Shown piece by piece: positions 20,469 to 32,758 of a DNA stretch of 52,820 nucleotides; the stretch's first letter is position 1, and every line of letters begins with the position of its first letter. A model generated the notes under the pieces. It made no database searches. It saw only the letters and a list, made by a program, of their open reading frames with translations, and had not been told where the DNA came from. The position numbers and the translations under genes were made by a program. The stretch lies in the IMG/VR virus record IMGVR_UViG_3300032322_000399, positions 1-52,820 of that record; one strand, written 5' to 3'. Source of the stretch: a virus (taxonomy: Duplodnaviria > Caudoviricetes).

Positions 20469-21758
20469 CTAGACCAGCGGCGAGGTCGGGGCCTCGGTCT
20501 CAGCGGGCGGCAGACCCGCCACGCCGCGGAGGTAGTCTTCCAGGCGCACGTCAGGAGTCAGCGCACCCGCCCCGGCGAGTTTCTGCACGAAGTCGCCGAG
20601 TTCGGCGAGATCCACATGCGCCACCTCTCCGTAGGCAAGCGTCGGAGGCGTCTCCACGTCGATCGCGTTCAGTTGGAGCAGGCGCGGGATCGCGTGCGTG
20701 TTCACGACCTCGGCGATCGACTTAGCGATCGCGTCCACCGCCATAGTCCACAGATCCATCTTCGAGGAGCCGAGAGAGAAAGATCCGACGCGCTCGTGAC
20801 CGAGCAGAATGAAGTCCGCGAGCACGGACATCGCGATCCGCTGGTCGTAGCGGGTGATCACCTTGTCGGTGTCGAACTGGCGCTGTCCGCCCGTGGATAG
20901 GAGCGTGAGGTCGAACAGTTTATGTCCGGACTCGTCGTAGACCGTGGGGAATACGACGCCCTCCTGCTCATTCCGCTTGATCGAGGTAACGATCTGCTGG
21001 ATCGCGGCGAGCACCTGCTGCTGGTCCGACGTCGCGTTCGAGGACAGGTACTCCGGGGGAACGTACGCGACCGGCAGACCGGCGAGGTCACGCTCGATGC
21101 CCACGGCCTCGATCTCCTCGATGCGCCGCTTGAAGTACCACGGGCGGTAGGCGTTGCGGAGCAGGGAGCGGCCCTCGGGGTTGCCCTTCGCTGTCGTCGT
21201 GCGGAACAGGAGCGCCTTGTCGATCGGGATCGTCACGGCCCCGTAACCGCCGGAGGGATCGACTTGGATGAGGCCCTGGATGCCGCCTGCGCGGTCGAAC
21301 TGCCACATCCACAGGGTGTCCTGCGACCGGATAGGCCACTTCCGCCACCCGATGCGCCCGTCCGTGAACCGGGAACGCTTCGCCGGATCTTTCTGCGCGG
21401 GCCCGAGGCGGCGCTTGTAGACGATCTCGTGGTACGACCACCCGTAAGTCAGCATCGACAGGACCGCGGACAACGTGGCGTCCCAGGAGTCGCTCATGTC
21501 GTCCATGCACTCCTGCACGAACTTAGCGACCTCGGTGTCTGCTTCGTCCTCCGAGGCGGCGTCGATGCGCCACTCCAAGCGGGAGATGACCTTCTCGATC
21601 GCGAACAGGATCGACCCCACGACGGGATCGTTGTCGCTCATGTCGCGGTAGACCCTCACGCCCCGGGTGCCGTGAAGGTTCGAGAGGAACTCGTCGATGA
21701 TCGCGCCGCCGGAGCGACGCAGACCTGTCGTGCCGAGTTCCGTTAGGTCCGGTGCCAT
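20469..21758 (-). CDS. Portal protein (DUF935/Mu gp29-like)
   Basis: MLTYGWSYHEIVY, NPEGRSLLRNAYRPW, GIERDLAGLP, LEDYLR...GLP. Confidence 0.9.
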   Translation of the reverse strand: MAPDLTELGTTGLRRSGGAIIDEFLSNLHGTRGVRVYRDMSDNDPVVGSILFAIEKVISRLEWRIDAASEDEADTEVAKFVQECMDDMSDSWDATLSAVLSMLTYGWSYHEIVYKRRLGPAQKDPAKRSRFTDGRIGWRKWPIRSQDTLWMWQFDRAGGIQGLIQVDPSGGYGAVTIPIDKALLFRTTTAKGNPEGRSLLRNAYRPWYFKRRIEEIEAVGIERDLAGLPVAYVPPEYLSSNATSDQQQVLAAIQQIVTSIKRNEQEGVVFPTVYDESGHKLFDLTLLSTGGQRQFDTDKVITRYDQRIAMSVLADFILLGHERVGSFSLGSSKMDLWTMAVDAIAKSIAEVVNTHAIPRLLQLNAIDVETPPTLAYGEVAHVDLAELGDFVQKLAGAGALTPDVRLEDYLRGVAGLPPAETEAPTSPLV

Positions 21759-25704: not shown

Positions 25705-26265
25705 CTAGAAGTGCGGGTCGCGGTAGTCCTTCGCGTAGCCGACCACGAGGCTGCCGTAATCGTTGCCCTTCTCCACGAACCGGGGCTGCTGCTGCTCCCA
25801 GCATGGGAAGCAGTCGGCGGGGTCGGTGTCGAACTGGCTCGGCGTGCGGTCGGGGCGGTGCTGCCAGCATGTCGCGGGTCCGCGGCGCTCCCGGCGGGTG
25901 AACGTCTCGACGCCGTAGACGTAGGTCGGTTGCTCGCCCGTGAAGTCCCACTCGACCTCGGGGCGGACGCTGCCGTCGTAGTTGCGGTGGATTGCGTGGA
26001 TCGCGGACACCTGACCCTTCTTCGCGCCGGACTTGTAGCGGTCCACGGCGACGATGAGCATCGCGTAGGAGTCGCTGCCGATGTACAGGGTCGCGGGTGC
26101 TCCGGGCTCGTAGGAGGCGTTGCGGCGTGCGGCCTGACGCTGCTCCCAGGGCCAATCATTCGAGTTGTAGGCGAGGTAGTCCTTCGACGCCTTGTGCGCG
26201 GCGACGATGCGCTCGTCCCACGGGCCGGTGAGGCGGCGGGGATCTGTCGATGCTGCGGTGTTCAT
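25705..26265 (-). CDS. Hypothetical protein
   Basis: GAPATLYIGSDSY...LVVGYAKDYRDPHF; AGGAGCCAC at 26267. Confidence 0.75.
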   Translation of the reverse strand: MNTAASTDPRRLTGPWDERIVAAHKASKDYLAYNSNDWPWEQRQAARRNASYEPGAPATLYIGSDSYAMLIVAVDRYKSGAKKGQVSAIHAIHRNYDGSVRPEVEWDFTGEQPTYVYGVETFTRRERRGPATCWQHRPDRTPSQFDTDPADCFPCWEQQQPRFVEKGNDYGSLVVGYAKDYRDPHF

Positions 26266-26274
26266 GGTGGCTCC

Positions 26275-26508
26275 TCAGTTACTCGTGCGGGTGTAGGTGT
26301 CGTAGGTGCGCCAGAGGACGGTGACGATCGCGCCGTCCTCGGTGTAGCAGACCGCGATGCGGTCGCTGGTTGCGATGCGTCGTCCGGGGTAGCGGTCGTC
26401 GCAGGGGTAGTCGATGACGGGGCGGGCGATGACCGCGCGAACCTCGTCGGCGGTCACCCCCATCTCGGTCATGCGCTGAAGCGCGTGGAAAGTGATCCGC
26501 GGGCTCAC
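26275..26508 (-). CDS. DUF4258-like (RelE/BECR-fold) putative RNase
   Basis: ITFHALQRMTEMGVTADEVRAVI..P...IVTV; GTGA overlap. Confidence 0.6.
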   Translation of the reverse strand: MSPRITFHALQRMTEMGVTADEVRAVIARPVIDYPCDDRYPGRRIATSDRIAVCYTEDGAIVTVLWRTYDTYTRTSN

Positions 26509-26693
26509 GAGAGATCCGCGGGGGTCGGGTCGATGTAGCCGAGGTTCTCGTCCCACTCGCGGGTCTCGACCACGCGGTGCTGCTTGATGTTCGCCTGCCA
26601 CTCCTCTAGCGGGATCTCGGTGCGGTCGAGGAGTTCGATCATGACCTGCCCGGTCTCGGTGCGGCGGGCTCGGCGGTAGGGGGTGCGGTACAC
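26505..26693 (-). CDS. Hypothetical protein
   Basis: CGGAGCCAC variant start sequence; first gene behind promoter. Confidence 0.65.
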   Translation of the reverse strand: MYRTPYRRARRTETGQVMIELLDRTEIPLEEWQANIKQHRVVETREWDENLGYIDPTPADLS

Positions 26694-26729
26694 GGTGGCT
26701 CCGTTCTGTCGGTGGTGCTCGATGGGGCA

Positions 26730-26759
26730 ACTCTACCTAACCGGGGTTAGGTCTGTCAA
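26730..26759 (-). promoter_or_regulatory. SigA-type promoter with operator
   Basis: TTGACA-N18-TAGAGT; palindrome at 26737-26750. Confidence 0.88.
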
Positions 26760-26929
26760 GGGGGCGGGGCAGGGAGCCCCGAGGGCGTGTCCCCCGGGGC
26801 CGCATCGAGCAGACCGAGCACATCACGGACAGCCTTCGCGTAACCCCGCCCGAAGTCCCGCGAACCCGTCGCAGACTCCTCGGGCAGGGCCGCGATCGCA
26901 GCCCGCATCCACTCCACGGTCCCGCTCAT
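26756..26929 (-). CDS. 57-aa hypothetical protein
   Basis: GGAGGAGG RBS; MSGTVEWMRAA...FGRGYAKAVRDVL. Confidence 0.6.
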   Translation of the reverse strand: MSGTVEWMRAAIAALPEESATGSRDFGRGYAKAVRDVLGLLDAAPGDTPSGLPAPPP

Positions 26930-26931
26930 CC

Positions 26932-27060
26932 CTACCTCCTCCAATAGATCAGCCTTGCTAGCAGTAGGCACCGACGCTCGTGCCTGTCCATCCAGCGATC
27001 CGCGCCCCACCCGGTCAGGCGAGTAGCGGACTCCCCGCAGATGCACGAGATCCGTGTCAC
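26932..27060 (-). CDS. 42-aa Cys/His protein
   Basis: CICG...W...H...C; GTGA overlap. Confidence 0.5.
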   Translation of the reverse strand: MTRISCICGESATRLTGWGADRWMDRHERRCLLLARLIYWRR

Positions 27061-27239
27061 GGGGCCACGGCCCGGCGCTGAATCCGCGAGAGCCGCAGGT
27101 ACGACTCGTGGCGCGACCGACACGGCTTGCACTTCGGGGTCGTGCCAAGCCTGCCCCCACGGTTCGGGGTGAACTCGGTCAGCGGCTTGTCCACGCCGCA
27201 GGCGTTGCACACCTTCGAGATCGCGATCGTGGTCTCCAC
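27057..27239 (-). CDS. Zn-finger protein
   Basis: CNACGVDKPLTEF...CKPCR. Confidence 0.65.
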   Translation of the reverse strand: METTIAISKVCNACGVDKPLTEFTPNRGGRLGTTPKCKPCRSRHESYLRLSRIQRRAVAP

Positions 27240-27244
27240 GGCGG

Positions 27245-27517
27245 TCAGTTCTCCGGCAGGACGATCGGCTGACCGGCGGTGTACTGCTGGTCGATCAGGG
27301 CGTACAGGGCGCGGCGCTCGGTCGTGGCGATGTCGGCGAGTTCGGCGCGGTACTTCCAGCGCAGGACGTAGTAGGCGCGGCGGCTAGCGAGACGGTTCGC
27401 GACCTTCCGGGCGGCACGCTGCTCGTCCGAGAGGCGGGGGCGTCCCTGCCGCTTGATCTGCGGGGTCGTCCCGGTCTCCTTCGCGGCGAGCATGATCTGG
27501 TACGGGGTCATGGACAT
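27245..27517 (-). CDS. Basic hypothetical protein downstream of the ribozyme
   Basis: AGGAGCCCC RBS; GRPRL motif. Confidence 0.7.
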   Translation of the reverse strand: MSMTPYQIMLAAKETGTTPQIKRQGRPRLSDEQRAARKVANRLASRRAYYVLRWKYRAELADIATTERRALYALIDQQYTAGQPIVLPEN

Positions 27518-27540
27518 GGCGGGGCTCCTAACGGTTTCCT

Positions 27541-27600
27541 GACAGGCTCGTCAGCACGGGTACTCACCCGCGGACCCCCCGGTCGGGGGGTTTCGCCCTG
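27541..27600 (-). ncRNA. Hammerhead ribozyme (type II, helix II open)
   Basis: GGC-GAAA-CCCCCC(GACC)GGGGGG-UC-CGCGGG(UGAGUA)CCCGUG-CUGACGA-GCC: all core motifs and three helices. Confidence 0.88.
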
Positions 27601-27643
27601 GTCGTGCCTCCTCACTAGGAGAAGGCGTCGGAAGGTGCGGGGA

Positions 27644-27673
27644 ACAGTATCTAACCCCGGTTAGGTCTGTCAA
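27644..27673 (-). promoter_or_regulatory. SigA-type promoter with operator, driving the ribozyme leader
   Basis: TTGACA-N18-TACTGT; palindrome at 27651-27664. Confidence 0.82.
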
Positions 27674-27713
27674 GGGGGTGTCGGGATCGGCGTGTCAGAC
27701 CTCCGGCTAGGGC

Positions 27714-27983
27714 CTAGGCGGCGGGCCGCATCCGGCGGGCGACGTGGACCGTCCGAACCCGGTCGAGGCGGAAGGCCCGGTACTGCCCGTTCGGGCCTAC
27801 GCAGTCGATCCACGAGGTCGTGGGGGTGACGACGTAGCGCAGGAACCGGAAGCGGCCCCGCTCACCACGGATCCGGAACTCGACGCCGGGCCGCAGGTAT
27901 CGGCCTCCGGGTGCGGCGACCTCGGTGAGGCGCTGCCAATCGGGGTGTGCGGGGGTCGGGTGGTACTTCTTCCGAGCGATCAT
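27714..27983 (-). CDS. Hypothetical protein (SH3-like beta fold)
   Basis: GVEFRIRGERGRFRF...WIDCVG...RAFRLDRV; AGGAGCCAC at 27986; TAGAAT -10 beside operator variant. Confidence 0.75.
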   Translation of the reverse strand: MIARKKYHPTPAHPDWQRLTEVAAPGGRYLRPGVEFRIRGERGRFRFLRYVVTPTTSWIDCVGPNGQYRAFRLDRVRTVHVARRMRPAA

Positions 27984-28100
27984 CGGTGGCTCCTCTCGTG
28001 TGCTCGTACCCCTATTCTACTAACCGGGGTTTAGCGAGCATCGAGTTTCGAGCCCGATCTATGAGGCAGAACAGCCGCGACACGCCGCGACTTGACAGCG

Positions 28101-28229
28101 TTATCGAGGTTTACGCGCAGACCGCTCCGGAGCCGTGTAGTGCTGACGTGCGTAGTGCATCTTCCACAGAGCAGTCGGATCCACGCCGTCGCCCACGGCA
28201 CCGCAGATCCGACAAGTGAACGAACCCAC
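28101..28229 (-). CDS. 42-aa C2H2-type Zn-finger peptide (not in ORF track)
   Basis: MGSFTCRICGAVGDGVDPTALWKMHYARQH... Confidence 0.5.
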   Translation of the reverse strand: MGSFTCRICGAVGDGVDPTALWKMHYARQHYTAPERSARKPR

Positions 28230-28234
28230 CGCGG

Positions 28235-29842
28235 TCAGAGTTTCCAGTCATTCGTCTGCGTGAACCCGATCGGCGCGACCGTGGGGATCGAGCGGCCCGG
28301 CGGCTCGTACACGGCGAGGAGCATCGCGTCCGCACGGTCAGGCGATCCGACGCCGCGGCGCTTCATGTCCTTCTTCGACTCGATCACGATGCGGCCCGAT
28401 GAGTCCGACCGGTACGTCGGTCCCGACAGTTGCGATAGCCCACGGCGGTCGGTGTCGATGCGGAGACGCTGCGCCCCATCGGCGGCGGGCTGAAGCATCT
28501 GGCGGGCGTTCCACCACATCTCGGCCCGCTGGTTCGCGAACTTCGTCGGCTCGCCGGACTTCTCGGCGACGTTCACGGCGATGATGTCGGCGGCGTGCAT
28601 CTGCTCGTCCCGCCACCGTTGCAGCACCGATACCACGGCCCAGCCGACACCGATCGAGTCCACCTTGACACGGACAGGGCTCGACACCTGGCGGGCCTGC
28701 TGCTCGGCTTCGGCCTGCCGGATCTTCTCCAACACGACCCCAGCGACATCCACGGCGTTCGCGTTCGCCTGCCCCGAGGAGCGATGCCACACCGACACGG
28801 TGCCCCGGTCATAGGCAGCGATGACGAACTCGTCCCCACCGTCTGAGGCCACGTCCACGCCGAGGCGGATCGTGTCGTCGGTGTCGGGCTCGGCGTTGTC
28901 GAGGGCCTGCTCCGCCCAATGCAGGGGGATGACCTTGTTCGCGGTCTGCCGCGGGAAGCGGGCGTGGACGCGGGCCTCCACGAACGCGGAGTCCTCACCG
29001 AACTCCTGCATAACGTCCTCGACCCACTCGCGATCCACGAGGTGCGATGCCACCGAGTGCTTGGGCACCTCGGGCGGGCAGGCATGACAGATCCCGGCGT
29101 CCTCCCCGGTCCAGTTAGGTGTCGCCTCGACGGGGATCGGGATGACGTTGTACAGAGGCGACTCGCACGCCTGCTCGAACCACGTCCCCTCCGCGTCCAC
29201 CGGAGGGTTCCCGAGGACGAGGAGGCGCGTATGCCCGCCTGTCATGAGGGCCTCTAATGCGCGTCCGAGGATCGGGGAGATGCCGCCCGCCTCGTCTACG
29301 ACGATCAGGAGATGCGGGGCGTGGATACCTTGCACGGCGGTCTCGTCGTGGTCGGCGGGGCTGAACCCGTCCGCAACCGTCTCACCCGCGATCTTCCACT
29401 CCACGAGGTTCGTCTCACCCGGCAGATCGTGGCGGGCGATGACCCGGCGCAGGTGAGGCCACAGGACGTTCTTCACCTGCCGGAACGTCGAGGCCGTGGT
29501 CACGACTCGGGCGGTCCCGGGGGGATGCACGGTGCCCCACCACGCGATCACGCGGGAGGCGACGTGAGACTTGCCGGGCGCGTGACAGGCAGGGACCACG
29601 GTGCGCTTGTTGTCCCGTACGGACTCCATGATCTCCCGCTGCTTCGACCAGACGGTCTCGTGCAGCACGTCCCGGGTGAAGCCCACGGGGTCGTCGGCGT
29701 AGCGGGACCACAGGGCAGACGTACCGGCCTTCGACAAGGCCGCGACAGCGACAGCCCGCTCCTCGGGCGAGAGGGCCTCTAGGGCTTTCCTGCGGGCATC
29801 CGGGGGCGCTGCGAGGAGAAGCCCGGCGAGCCGGTCACTCAC
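28235..29842 (-). CDS. terL: Terminase large subunit
   Basis: Walker A ACHAPGKS, Walker B VVDEAG, GNP, nuclease LGVDVA and SPDRADA. Confidence 0.93.
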   Translation of the reverse strand: MSDRLAGLLLAAPPDARRKALEALSPEERAVAVAALSKAGTSALWSRYADDPVGFTRDVLHETVWSKQREIMESVRDNKRTVVPACHAPGKSHVASRVIAWWGTVHPPGTARVVTTASTFRQVKNVLWPHLRRVIARHDLPGETNLVEWKIAGETVADGFSPADHDETAVQGIHAPHLLIVVDEAGGISPILGRALEALMTGGHTRLLVLGNPPVDAEGTWFEQACESPLYNVIPIPVEATPNWTGEDAGICHACPPEVPKHSVASHLVDREWVEDVMQEFGEDSAFVEARVHARFPRQTANKVIPLHWAEQALDNAEPDTDDTIRLGVDVASDGGDEFVIAAYDRGTVSVWHRSSGQANANAVDVAGVVLEKIRQAEAEQQARQVSSPVRVKVDSIGVGWAVVSVLQRWRDEQMHAADIIAVNVAEKSGEPTKFANQRAEMWWNARQMLQPAADGAQRLRIDTDRRGLSQLSGPTYRSDSSGRIVIESKKDMKRRGVGSPDRADAMLLAVYEPPGRSIPTVAPIGFTQTNDWKL

Positions 29843-30305
29843 TCGTCTCCCCGGACAGCATCGCGGCGATCTTCGCCTCTACCTCGTCCACCGAGACGGT
29901 GAGCCGCACGGGGGTGTCTGTACCTGCGACCTCGACTCGGCGGGCGTACCGCGAAGGCATCCGGCGCTCCAGCCACCACGCTGCGGCCTGCCATGTGCCC
30001 CCGGCGGCGGCGTTCTGGATCACGGAGATGTTTCGGATCTCGGCGTCGGCCTGCGCCTTCTTTACGGACTCCCATATCTCCCGGTACGGGGTCTCGTCGG
30101 GGTCCGGTTCTGCGCCGTCTGCGATGCGCTCCTCCTCGGTGCGCCCTCGATCCATCCAGCGGTAGAACGTGGTCGTGCCGATGCCGACGTGAGCGGCTGC
30201 GCCTTCGTGGGTCGCCCCGGCGCGGATAGCCGCGCATAGGGTCTTCTGGATCTCGGGGTCGAGGAGTTTCGGTCGTCGGCCCTTACGCTTCGGGGTCTCT
30301 GACAT
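29835..30305 (-). CDS. terS: Terminase small subunit
   Basis: GRRPKL, HTH AAAHVGIGTTTFYRW, WQAAAWWLERR; upstream of TerL. Confidence 0.8.
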   Translation of the reverse strand: MSETPKRKGRRPKLLDPEIQKTLCAAIRAGATHEGAAAHVGIGTTTFYRWMDRGRTEEERIADGAEPDPDETPYREIWESVKKAQADAEIRNISVIQNAAAGGTWQAAAWWLERRMPSRYARRVEVAGTDTPVRLTVSVDEVEAKIAAMLSGETSE

Positions 30306-30309
30306 GTGT

Positions 30310-31011
30310 TCAGTCTACGGGGGTTAGGGATCGGGCGGGCAGTTCAGGGAGTTCGGGTCGGTGTAGCGGGGGGCGTTGCCACGACGGTTCCCAGGTGGCG
30401 AGTTCTTCGTCCTGCGGGCGGTATTCGATGTGCCCGGCGGTGTTCAGGGTGTCGAGCACGTCGAGGATGAGCCGCACGCCCATTGGGGCTAGGCGTTCCC
30501 TCCACAGGGTCTCGGGGGTGTCGTCGGGATGGACGTGGCACCAGTCCTGCGCTGCGATCGGCCCGGCGTCCACGGTATCGGTGAGGTGGTACACGGTGCC
30601 TCCGGTGATCCTGTCGCGGTCTCGGATCGTCCACCGGATTGCGTCCCTGCCGCGGTGTAACGGGAGGAGGCTCGGGTGGTAGCCGATCGCGTAGGTGCAG
30701 CGGAGCCGGGCGACACGGGAGATGAAGGCGTGACTGTGAGCGGATACGAGTACGTCGGTGCTCGGTGGTAGTCGGTCGGCCCGCAGTTCGAGGGCATCGA
30801 GCCACGGGACGCCGACAAGACCGGCCCACGCACGGAGGCGGTCGTGGCGGAACCCCTCCTCCGCGGTGCCGTAGGTGTAGTGCAGCCCGTCGTGGGGGGC
30901 GGAGAACGCGGGCGAGATGACGAGGGCGAGGTCGTAGCCTGCCTCCCCGATCGCCGCGGCGACGGCCTGCCCGAACGCTCGGGAACCTGAGACGACGACG
31001 CGGATGGTCAT
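30310..31011 (-). CDS. Formyltransferase (Fmt/PurN-like)
   Basis: GYHPSLLPLHRGRDAIRWTI...GGTVYHL...DAGPI; ATGA coupling at 31008-31011. Confidence 0.88.
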   Translation of the reverse strand: MTIRVVVSGSRAFGQAVAAAIGEAGYDLALVISPAFSAPHDGLHYTYGTAEEGFRHDRLRAWAGLVGVPWLDALELRADRLPPSTDVLVSAHSHAFISRVARLRCTYAIGYHPSLLPLHRGRDAIRWTIRDRDRITGGTVYHLTDTVDAGPIAAQDWCHVHPDDTPETLWRERLAPMGVRLILDVLDTLNTAGHIEYRPQDEELATWEPSWQRPPLHRPELPELPARSLTPVD

Positions 31012-32156
31012 GCGGGGGTCCGTTCCCCAAGGTAGCGGAAGCCTTGAACGGCCCGCATGTGTCCGCCGAACCCGGCGATTCGGGCCCCGGACTTCTTCAT
31101 CGACTTCAGGGACGCGGCCTTCGATGCCCCGTACAGGCTCGCGGACACCTGAACCCACTTCGGGTCGCGGCGTAGCGCGGCGCATAGTTGCGGATGCGAC
31201 GTGTGGAAGATCGTGGTCATGCGGCGCGGCAGCACACCGTCGCCGAGGCGCTGCATCTCGCAGACGTGGTTCAGGAACTTCAGCCCTAGCCCTGCTCCTT
31301 GCCATTCGGGCATGACGACCATGCGGCAGGCGCGGGCTTCCACGGACTGCACCGTCTTGCCCCTGTGCTTGACAGGGACGTTGCGGGTCGCGATACCGAG
31401 ATGCGCGACAGGTTCACCGTCCACGAACGCGACGTACACCTTGCCCGCGAGCATCGGCCCGGCCTCTAGATAGTGATACGGCTTGAAGGTCTCCCATAAC
31501 TCCCAGCCTCCGAGCCGGATATCGACTTCGATCGGTGAGCGACGTTGATGCCACCCCCAGGCGAACTCGTCCTTGCCGGTGTCGTACACCCAATCGGGTT
31601 GCAGCCAGTCGAGCACGTCATAGTGGCACGTCAGGAGCACGGCCTGACCTGCGTCACGTCGCCAGCCCTTAGCGAACGCCTGAGCGCCGATCTTCGCGAT
31701 CTGCCGATCGACCACGGACGTGAACTCGTCCACGACCACGCGGGCCGGACGCTCGGCGAGGACACGGGCGAGGTCGGCTCGGAACTGTTGCCCCGTCGAA
31801 AGGACCGAGTAGGGGCGGAGCCACGCGCGTACCTCACCGAGCCCGACCTGACCTAGGGCCCCGGTCACGGCATCGAAGTCTTCACCCTTCCCGATCACGT
31901 CGATGATCGGTGCATCCTTAGGCCACCGGAACTGCGACGCCTTGTACGGTGCGCCGTCCCACAGGGCCTTGCCGATGCTCGACTTCCCCGAGCCGGACGG
32001 GCCCACGACCACGCCGATCTGCCACTCCTTCTCCTCGATCGGCAGGTCAGCCACGAGGTCGAACGCGGTCGCGTCCTCACAGTTGAACAGAGACTTGACA
32101 CGGGCCGCGCGGTACGAGTCGAAGTCGCTCGTGCGATGCGCGATCTCGACCTTCAC
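31008..32156 (-). CDS. ABC-type ATPase fused to GNAT acyltransferase
   Basis: GPSGSGKS, LSTGQ, VVVDEF, TCH; RMVVMPEWQGAGLG acyl-CoA motif; GTGA coupling. Confidence 0.88.
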   Translation of the reverse strand: MKVEIAHRTSDFDSYRAARVKSLFNCEDATAFDLVADLPIEEKEWQIGVVVGPSGSGKSSIGKALWDGAPYKASQFRWPKDAPIIDVIGKGEDFDAVTGALGQVGLGEVRAWLRPYSVLSTGQQFRADLARVLAERPARVVVDEFTSVVDRQIAKIGAQAFAKGWRRDAGQAVLLTCHYDVLDWLQPDWVYDTGKDEFAWGWHQRRSPIEVDIRLGGWELWETFKPYHYLEAGPMLAGKVYVAFVDGEPVAHLGIATRNVPVKHRGKTVQSVEARACRMVVMPEWQGAGLGLKFLNHVCEMQRLGDGVLPRRMTTIFHTSHPQLCAALRRDPKWVQVSASLYGASKAASLKSMKKSGARIAGFGGHMRAVQGFRYLGERTPA

Positions 32157-32758
32157 GTCGTCACGACCTTGCACTTGTAACCGTCATCGAGGAGCCGCTG
32201 GTAGGTATCGGCCTGATCCTGCTCGGTGTCGCACATCACGATGACCCCGTACTGCTGGCGGTACTTGTCCTCGACCTCCACGTCATCGAAGTAGTCCGCA
32301 GAGTCGGGGATCTCCTCGTCCTCGGCGTGCTCGTGGAGCAGGAGCGCGGCCTCCTCCGGTGTCCAACCGATGTCTTCGAGCATGTCCATGTCCGAGGCGA
32401 AGTCGGACAGCATGTCAGCGAGGAGAGCGTCGTCGTAGGAACCGATGTCGCCGAGGCGGTTGTCGGCGAGCGCGAACGCGCGAGCGGTCCAGCGGTCATC
32501 GTCCACGAACACGACCGCGATCTTGTCCCAGCCGAGTTCCACGGCGGCGGCGTAGGTGTGGTTGCCTGCGATGATCTCGCCGCGGGCTCCGGTGCCGTCG
32601 AGTTTCCGGACCACGATCGGCTTCCGCTGACCGAAGCGGCGCAGCGACTTCGAGATCCGAGACACGTCACCCCGGCGAGGGTTCCCCTCCAAAGGGAGGA
32701 GTTCCCCGACCGGGGTGAGGAGAGGTTTCAGAGAGTCGGGAACCTTAGGGGATGCCAT
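32153..32758 (-). CDS. ParB/Srx-like N-terminal domain protein
   Basis: NPR...SLRRFGQRKPIVV...IIAGNHT...ALADNR; small C-terminal QYGVIVMC...GYKCKVV domain. Confidence 0.85.
   Translation of the reverse strand: MASPKVPDSLKPLLTPVGELLPLEGNPRRGDVSRISKSLRRFGQRKPIVVRKLDGTGARGEIIAGNHTYAAAVELGWDKIAVVFVDDDRWTARAFALADNRLGDIGSYDDALLADMLSDFASDMDMLEDIGWTPEEAALLLHEHAEDEEIPDSADYFDDVEVEDKYRQQYGVIVMCDTEQDQADTYQRLLDDGYKCKVVTT

Follow-up and report, generated by a model that had tools for sequence, protein, structure and literature searches.

RESULTS

Genomic context of the ribozyme

The window, meaning the whole stretch of DNA analyzed here, is an entire IMG/VR virus record of 52,820 nucleotides; it is estimated to be 87% complete, has a GC content of 66%, and carries nearly all of its genes on the minus strand. 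By terminase comparison, its best cultured relatives are Arthrobacter phages (54 to 56% identity), and no close DNA relatives were found among cultured phages. A hammerhead ribozyme lies in the block of small genes that runs from the terminase to the portal gene, in the intergenic stretch between a DUF7246 gene and a 90-amino-acid (aa) open reading frame (ORF) (Table 1). A reading of this locus made from the sequence alone (here, the sequence-only reading) had placed it between a promoter-like site and the ribosome-binding site (RBS) of the ORF at 27245-27517, and these sequence elements are indeed present.

TABLE 1 Features of the ribozyme locus and neighboring genes
Feature	Position	Strand	Remarks
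Terminase small subunit	29835-30305		
Terminase large subunit	28235-29842		
DUF7246 gene (Pfam PF23904)	27714-27983		
Promoter-like site	27644-27673	-	-35 TTGACA at 27673-27668; palindrome CTAACCGGGGTTAG at 27664-27651 in the spacer; -10 TACTGT at 27649-27644
Leader hairpin	27606-27626	-	8 bp, loop CUAGU, no U tract; fold prediction
5' flank GAC-CA	27599-27603	-	GAC can pair with GUC of the tail, extending helix II past a 2-nt bulge
Hammerhead core and helices	27544-27598	-	RF02276, 33.8 bits; subclass model, 55.1 bits; MFE structure of the isolated element
Stem II, 5' strand	27598-27595	-	GGGC
GAAA	27594-27591	-	
Stem III	27590-27575	-	C6/G6, loop GACC
U16.1	27574	-	
C17	27573	-	
Stem I	27572-27555	-	7 bp, loop GAGU
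CUGACGA	27554-27548	-	
Stem II, 3' strand	27547-27544	-	GCCU
3' tail GUCAG	27539-27543	-	Complementary to catalytic CUGAC 27554-27550 (alternative hairpin of 5 to 6 bp) and partly to GAC of the 5' flank
Shine-Dalgarno (SD) AGGAG	27525-27529	-	7 nt 5' of the ATG at 27517
90-aa ORF, conserved partner of the ribozyme	27245-27517	-	No family; three homologues; 64% identity in L286
60-aa CxxC...CxxC zinc-ribbon ORF	27057-27239	-	Weak matches to the N-terminal part of endonuclease VII/HNH PHROGs
Third small ORF, ~98 aa	26756-27052	-	Start chosen by homology with L286:2967-3263
Next promoter, TTGACA-18-TAGAGT plus palindrome	26730-26759	-	Ends the transcription unit of three genes headed by the ribozyme
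Portal gene	20469-21758		

Searches of Pfam, PHROGs, and ESM Atlas gave nothing usable on the function of the 90-aa ORF. Its three homologues in a large protein collection led to a single syntenic locus, designated L286, on a 54-kb metagenome contig. We considered whether the zinc-ribbon ORF is a frameshifted endonuclease VII gene and rejected this explanation, as L286 carries a matching 59- to 60-aa ORF with the same end; with its length conserved in L286, the zinc-ribbon ORF reads as a whole gene. Elsewhere in the genome, the minus-strand genes just upstream of the terminase genes (30310-31305 and 31008-32174) are unusual cargo for that position: they encode a protein with a formyltransferase domain (PF00551; PHROG 9240) and one of 388 aa that combines ABC-ATPase-like with GNAT-like parts (PHROG 11143).

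A promoter consensus scan called the site upstream of the ribozyme as TTGACA-16-GATACT, with 10 of 12 matches. We prefer the register with an 18-nt spacer because it matches the TTGACA-18-TAGAGT promoter at 26759-26730. Judged by the position of the -10 element, transcription would start near 27638-27636. Allowing up to two mismatches, the window contains 16 copies of the 14-bp palindrome in the spacer (CTAACCGGGGTTAG / CTAACCNNGGTTAG), versus 0.65 expected, at sites including 12826, 13158, 25020, 26737, 27651, 34256, 37163, 38420, and 51292. Its minus-strand copies lie mostly in the spacer of TTGACA..TAnnnT promoters that precede gene cassettes, and five copies are found in 5.3 kb of L286. 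This enrichment and the location of most copies inside promoters therefore mark the palindrome as a putative genome-wide promoter/operator motif. On the same grounds, the description of the operon as operator controlled is plausible but unproven. No terminator-like site was found within 26200-28300.

The intergenic stretch encodes a canonical type II hammerhead

From its 5' end, the element reads A27599, GGGC, GAAA, CCCCCC-GACC-GGGGGG, U, C17, CGCGGGU-GAGU-ACCCGUG, CUGACGA, and GCCU (ending at 27544), followed by the tail GUCAGG. The invariant core nucleotides C3 U4 G5 A6 N7 G8 A9 and G12 A13 A14 are present in CUGACGA and GAAA, respectively, as is the A15.1-U16.1 pair (A 27591/U 27574), after which H17 is the C at 27573. 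Stems I and III (7 bp, and 6 bp plus the A-U pair) are closed by loops, while stem II (4 bp) is open and contains the G10.1-C11.1 pair; the minimum free energy (MFE) structure of 27605-27544 is exactly this three-way junction, and the isolated element keeps the canonical fold when the tail is included. By the rule that hammerheads cleave 3' of H17, and by the Rfam alignment, the predicted cut falls between 27573 and 27572. The full type II hammerhead that had been described on the minus strand was thus borne out, with every listed element present and the core canonical throughout, and the cut site predicted for it agrees with the cleavage rule.

An Rfam scan of the whole window at gathering thresholds returned no match. 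Once the filters were made permissive, RF02276 (Hammerhead_II) gave a 33.8-bit match to 27597-27546 (E value, 3.1e-5 in 401 nt and 9.6e-7 for the whole 52.8-kb record) that ends at model position 58 of 66; the scan with a hammerhead model that had been suggested as a check therefore recovers the ribozyme, below the gathering score of 37. The RF02276 scan of the whole record shows it to be the only hammerhead copy in this genome. We also searched with a structural descriptor (GAAA, stem III hairpin, UH, stem I hairpin, CUGANGA, and a helix II of at least 2 bp). The ribozyme is its sole match in 87 sequences (676,776 bases) from the phage and its relatives. Among 200 dinucleotide-preserving shuffles of the whole window, the descriptor matched in one, and in none at the observed stem lengths.

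Inspection of the 3' tail found no complement of four or more bases to loop I (GAGU) that could form a loop I-tail pseudoknot. In type II hammerheads, the usual pseudoknot of this kind gives fast cleavage at low Mg2+.

The ribozyme is conserved together with the downstream ORF in one syntenic relative

L286 shares with the window the DUF7246 gene (86% identity), the 90-aa ORF (64%), the zinc-ribbon ORF (69%), and four further small genes, none of which is carried by any of the other 84 terminase-related loci. It also carries a hammerhead, at 2423-2480, directly before the orthologous 90-aa ORF. The two loci do not differ in any core base, in the tail GUCAGGAAACCG, or in the SD region. The differences lie in the helices and loops: stem III is two pairs shorter in L286, the loops are changed, G2.U17 and U7-A12 of stem I become A2-U17 and U7.G12, and a G.U pair of helix II becomes G-C.

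The region upstream of the ribozyme is arranged differently. A near-identical promoter (TTGACAgaCCTAACCGGGGTTAGTACTGT) lies at about L286:1316-1345, roughly 1.1 kb upstream of the ribozyme, and is separated from it by three ORFs (1387-2388, about 1 kb; 73, 138, and 137 aa) that are absent from the window. A breakpoint at the last codons of the third of these ORFs falls within 27606-27640 of the window; the leader hairpin aligns there, and its counterpart in L286 is not a hairpin. The link between the ribozyme and a promoter or leader, assumed in the sequence-only reading, is thus not conserved. Judged from this one syntenic relative, either a deletion that removed sequence from the window or an insertion that L286 acquired appears to account for the leader position, along with the hairpin and the 5' fragment of 66 nt. 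The freed 5' RNA of about 65 nt that had been predicted would measure about 66 nt with a start near 27638-27636, and both it and the leader hairpin appear lineage specific and are probably incidental. Because the distance to the promoter differs while the place of the ribozyme before the ORF is kept, the conserved unit is the ribozyme, RBS, and ORF. The occurrence of the same module behind different upstream RNAs argues that the ribozyme acts for the cistron downstream of it rather than for the promoter.

Further searches added no relatives of the locus. An IMG/VR peptide-pattern search for relatives of the 90-aa ORF or DUF7246 and a tblastn search of the 90-aa ORF against phage records both returned none. 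An Rfam scan of the terminase regions of four cultured relatives found no hammerhead, and RF02276 matched none of 30 whole records of terminase relatives, a weak negative, as controls gave no match either. With the descriptor and the covariance model described below, no hammerhead was found in the 84 nonsyntenic loci, a result that is uninformative on gain or loss because the seven small genes are absent there. Contigs of four freshwater or lake DNA runs that were compared with the window are pieces of 89 to 334 nt, none of which spans 27544-27593; they carry no information on the ribozyme, and the small proportions of sequence words in common do not point to a habitat.

The ribozyme belongs to a subclass without the loop I-tail pseudoknot

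To place the element among its relatives, IMG/VR was searched with two sequence patterns that left the 3' tail unconstrained (at least 119 stretches, then 79), and the descriptor identified 499 hammerheads in 191 loci, with up to nine per locus. The second pattern also matched 83 stretches in genome contigs, about half of which lack stems by eye (chance or unrelated matches), and the descriptor found hammerheads in 32 of the genome-contig loci; the titles of these records include Lentzea, Actinosynnema, Umezawaea, several actinobacterial metagenome-assembled genomes, Synergistaceae, and Tautonia. With the genome-contig loci added and duplicates removed, the set comprises 469 unique hammerheads: 308 with a long stem I loop and 161, including that of the window, with a short stem I. 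We refer to the 308 as pseudoknotted, a label defined by the long stem I loop; inspected examples can form the published loop I-tail pseudoknot by eye.

The short-stem-I members have a stem I hairpin of 16 to 20 nt, a helix II of 4 bp in 131 of 161 cases, and an unpaired A 5' of helix II in 94% (n = 161). U occupies stem I position 7 in 96 to 99% of the 17- and 18-nt hairpin classes and in 82% of the 19-nt class. As defined here, the subclass has a 4-bp helix II of the form A-GGGC/GCCY with an unpaired A on its 5' side, a stem I of 6 to 7 bp closed by G-C with U at position 7 and a loop of 3 to 4 nt, and a GUC cleavage triplet. The window element conforms to this definition, with A at 27599, GGGC/GCCU, U at stem I position 7, and GUC. 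Both nearly invariant, the unpaired A and the U at stem I position 7 may contribute a tertiary contact in place of the pseudoknot.

RF02276 run on four other records with subclass members gave seven matches, all seven at 31 to 34.6 bits and hence below the cutoff of 37. The subthreshold score of the window ribozyme is thus a limitation of the model, with no defining feature of the class absent, and the Rfam threshold systematically misses the whole pseudoknot-less subclass. A covariance model (R1) built from 47 subclass members, with the window and L286 left out, scores the window at 55.1 bits (E value, 3.3e-13) and L286 at 62.5 bits; with E values up to 10 admitted, one further match turned up in 675,943 bases, a noise match of 10.2 bits. 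In the alignment of these 47 sequences, helices I to III are 98 to 100% paired with many double changes, figures that are descriptive, as selection by the descriptor demands pairing.

Two other groups of sequences appeared in these searches. In one "Deltaproteobacteria bacterium TL4" assembly, 11 or more contigs (L287, L299, L302, L323, L335, L337, L343, L349, L353, L364, and L366) share a nearly identical stretch of about 60 nt (GGGCGAAAC...GTC...CTGACGAGCC) that lacks hammerhead stems and is therefore some other multicopy element. IMG/VR contigs of about 50 kb with 65 to 67% GC (L089, L090, L093, L100, L108, L193, L199, and others) carry 5 to 9 pseudoknotted type II hammerheads per 5 to 15 kb, one before almost every gene of a block; these arrays are far denser than the triple arrangements described in 2011.

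Hammerheads in phage contigs lie at a narrow distance from start codons

Among 392 phage-contig hammerheads that could be evaluated, 238 are followed on the same strand, within 80 nt, by an SD sequence, a start codon, and an ORF of at least 50 aa, compared with 507 of 2,090 random positions in the same loci. The median distance from helix II to the start codon is 24 nt (10th to 90th percentile, 17 to 33); in the window it is 26 nt.

The 3' tail can pair with the catalytic strand

The MFE structure of the full leader is not the hammerhead. It instead joins CUGACG (27554-27549) to UGUCAG (27544-27539) and GGGC to the GCCC next to the SD sequence; by nearest-neighbor energies, the inactive fold has -41.1 kcal/mol and the enforced active fold -35.8 kcal/mol, a difference of 5.3. 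For RNA that extends up to and including the tail, the MFE structure is the active fold, with helix II extended by the GAC/GUC pairing. Because no linker separates helix II from the tail, helix II and the tail helix should, on topological grounds, be unable to coexist. The tail is also present in L286, and its exact pattern had no matches in IMG/VR.

We looked at the tails of the whole set for the underlying 5-bp helix between C3-N7 and the tail (RUCAG with CUGAY). This helix occurs in 34 of the 161 short-stem-I members and in none of the 308 long-stem-I members; when tails were shuffled, it was found in a mean of 2.5 and a maximum of 8 members in 1,000 trials. Of 32 members whose tail reads NUCAG, 30 have a variable core base N7 that pairs with the corresponding tail base (21 C:G, 7 U:A, and 2 G.U or U.G), a number reached in none of 10,000 permutations. 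The 34 members do not represent one clone, as 31 distinct sequences are found among their stems I and likewise 31 among their stems III. Tails of the form GUCGG, which pair only through G.U, point to RNA pairing over a DNA palindrome as the basis of the complementarity.

The 5' flank may also take part. In the sub-lineage of the window, sequences that could extend helix II take the forms GAC-UA-GGGC (in low-GC contigs), GAC-CA-GGGC (in the window), and CUGAC-UGA-GGGC (in L286). We examined whether such extension is a property of the class and rejected this, since runs of at least 4 bp occur in 24% of members versus 14% with shuffled flanks and are not enriched; extension by the 5' flank is thus a lineage-specific possibility. 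The hammerhead most similar to that of the window outside L286 is found in L281 (the record of L104), about 1,500 nt along the reverse strand. It shares the CUGACGAGCCCGUCAG alternative hairpin, and 15 nt downstream of it begins a protein of about 145 aa that, by eye, resembles a helix-turn-helix at its C-terminal end.

Taken as a whole, the pairing suggests, at somewhat short of an even chance in our estimation, that about one-fifth of pseudoknot-less type II hammerheads, including that of the window, are bistable, with the tail-core helix serving as an OFF state or as a postcleavage trap. As an OFF state, it could make cleavage conditional, with the GAC or CUGAC copy in the 5' flank as the competing ON partner; as a trap, it could make cutting irreversible and cap the mRNA with a second hairpin. 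Passages of PMC3088659 and PMC6155905, and the titles and abstract beginnings returned by full-text searches of openly accessible articles, gave no description of the tail-core helix, and the fold is possibly unreported.

Conditional cleavage had been raised before on another basis, the short helix II. This argument does not hold, as 4 bp is the norm in the subclass; should cleavage be conditional, the alternative pairing of the 3' tail with the catalytic CUGAC is the better candidate. In its explicit form, the idea is that the tail GUCAG toggles between two partners: pairing with GAC of the 5' flank (ON) would extend helix II and leave the core free, and pairing with the catalytic CUGAC (OFF) would destroy both the core and helix II, such that folding kinetics, temperature, Mg2+, or the binding of 30S near the tail would govern cleavage and hence expression of the three ORFs. 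The restriction of the alternative helix to the pseudoknot-less members, its covariation and wobble pairs, its conservation in L286, where the 5' flank holds a full CUGAC copy able to pair with the tail, and the OFF fold as the full-length MFE structure all speak for a switch of this kind. We nevertheless regard it as unlikely: 127 of the 161 subclass members do without the helix, which is thus not needed for function, and the 5'-flank pairing shows no class-wide enrichment. Moreover, the ON fold is the MFE structure up to the tail, and cleavage may precede the OFF fold; a postcleavage product trap explains the alternative helix equally well; and the sequence suggests no ligand or factor.

The stability of the inactive fold in the full leader also bears on whether the ribozyme works at all. 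It could be a decaying or nonfunctional relic that is carried along with the ORF cassette and does not cleave at a useful rate, and the Rfam score under threshold, the absence of a pseudoknot or other obvious tertiary contact, and its status as the only hammerhead in the genome would fit such a history. We consider this very improbable, because no core nucleotide has been lost and none differs in L286, even though the protein of the adjacent ORF has diverged by 36%, and because the stem changes between the two loci keep pairing. The low Rfam score is a property of the subclass as a whole, and the subclass features, the A at -5 and the U at stem I position 7, have been kept. Finally, that a coding stretch, an attenuator, or a protein-binding structure resembles a hammerhead by chance is barely credible: small ORFs do overlap the element (27551-27673, 40 aa; 27508-27615, 35 aa) and the whole-leader fold has a z-score of only -1.58, but these ORFs start inside the -35 box or without an SD sequence and have no family match, no terminator-like site is present, and both the shuffled-window controls and the R1 score speak against a random match.

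DISCUSSION

Proposed function of the ribozyme

We judge it fairly probable that the element is a functional type II hammerhead of the pseudoknot-less subclass which, as a module with the RBS of the 90-aa ORF, fixes the 5' end of the mRNA. From its sequence, fold, conservation, and class membership we infer cleavage in vivo, the fate of the products, and an effect on expression, as follows. The three-way junction would fold during transcription, and the RNA would be cut after C17 (27573). The upstream piece, held by helix II only (4 bp plus up to 3 bp), would then depart with a 2',3'-cyclic phosphate, and the mRNA of the 90-aa ORF, the zinc-ribbon ORF, and the third ORF would begin with a 5'-OH flush on the stem I hairpin. 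The freed CUGACGAGCCU would be able to pair with the tail GUCAG, giving two adjacent 5' hairpins and leaving the SD sequence unpaired. Indeed, the 3' product is predicted to fold into stem I and the CUGACG/UGUCAG hairpin, with the SD sequence unpaired in the centroid structure. The hairpin-capped 5'-OH mRNA of the sequence-only reading agrees with this model, in which the 5'-OH end of the 3' product would sit directly on the stem I hairpin. The outcome would be a fixed, protected 5' end and a translation context independent of the upstream RNA.

In view of 5'-end-dependent RNA decay, a structured 5'-OH end would be expected to be more stable, and the ribozyme may thus confer a benefit in stability and insulation. 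A similar arrangement is used in synthetic biology: the insulator RiboJ, engineered from a type III satellite-RNA hammerhead, places a hammerhead and a downstream hairpin before the RBS. In RiboJ, the variable 5' leader is lost on cleavage, and what remains is a structured 5'-OH end with a hairpin and a free RBS behind it; we propose, by analogy, the same for the window; unlike in RiboJ, the second hairpin would be made from the ribozyme's own catalytic strand.

Relation to known hammerheads

Type II hammerheads between phage genes have already been published (PMC3088659), and the window ribozyme is another ordinary example. Passages of that study (Perreault et al. 2011) describe type II hammerheads as abundant in bacteria and prophages, with arrays that flank single genes, propose that they cut phage transcripts into gene-length mRNAs, and report that multiple prophage hammerheads cleave during in vitro transcription of native polycistronic fragments. 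The window element resembles this class (RF02276) in its circular permutation, with stems I and III capped and stem II open, in its invariant core, and in its intergenic phage position before genes, and the proposed role of cutting phage transcripts into gene-length mRNAs would apply to it as well. It lacks the loop I-3' tail pseudoknot reported there for the majority and differs further in its short stem I (7 bp, 4-nt loop), its 4-bp helix II preceded by a conserved unpaired A, and its score under the RF02276 gathering score. Unlike other phage contigs, with up to nine hammerheads per locus, the window holds a single copy.

HHphage of haloviruses HF1 and HF2 is a precedent for a phage operon whose mRNA has its 5' end set by a ribozyme. 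In the account given in passages of PMC3088659, the mapped 5' end of an early polycistronic transcript lies within 3 nt of the hammerhead cut; as in the window, the hammerhead immediately precedes the first ORF in a polycistronic phage transcript. HHphage, however, is a variant hammerhead of an archaeal virus, for which salt dependence is discussed there, whereas the core in the window is canonical and its leader position, as judged by L286, is recent.

Evidence that predicted elements of this kind cleave in cells comes from Desulfovibrio vulgaris. Sections of PMC8782182 report that three type II hammerheads near phage-like genes cleave in vivo, with both products, the 2',3'-cyclic phosphate and the 5'-OH, captured from total RNA by cyPhyRNA-seq. 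The window shares the type and the proximity to phage genes; the host phylum differs, and the comparison serves solely as such evidence. A 2017 review (PMC6155905) lists the role of prokaryotic hammerheads as an open question and stresses their link to phages. Hammerheads in the 5' untranslated regions of fungal and plant RNA viruses are needed for translation, according to a 2026 paper (PMC13725137), and they are likewise self-cleaving ribozymes in a viral 5' untranslated region that act on translation of the downstream ORF. Those systems, in contrast, are eukaryotic, with type I hammerheads, RNA genomes, and cap-independent translation, and no homology is implied.

Implications

Together, the two loci offer a natural comparison, in which the same module stands behind a 66-nt leader in the window and behind a 1-kb polycistronic RNA in L286. 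The covarying alternative helix offers a concrete target for mutation in asking whether these ribozymes are regulated. The tight spacing between ribozyme and start codon over hundreds of phage copies turns the idea that the ribozyme defines the 5' end of the message into a testable general rule.
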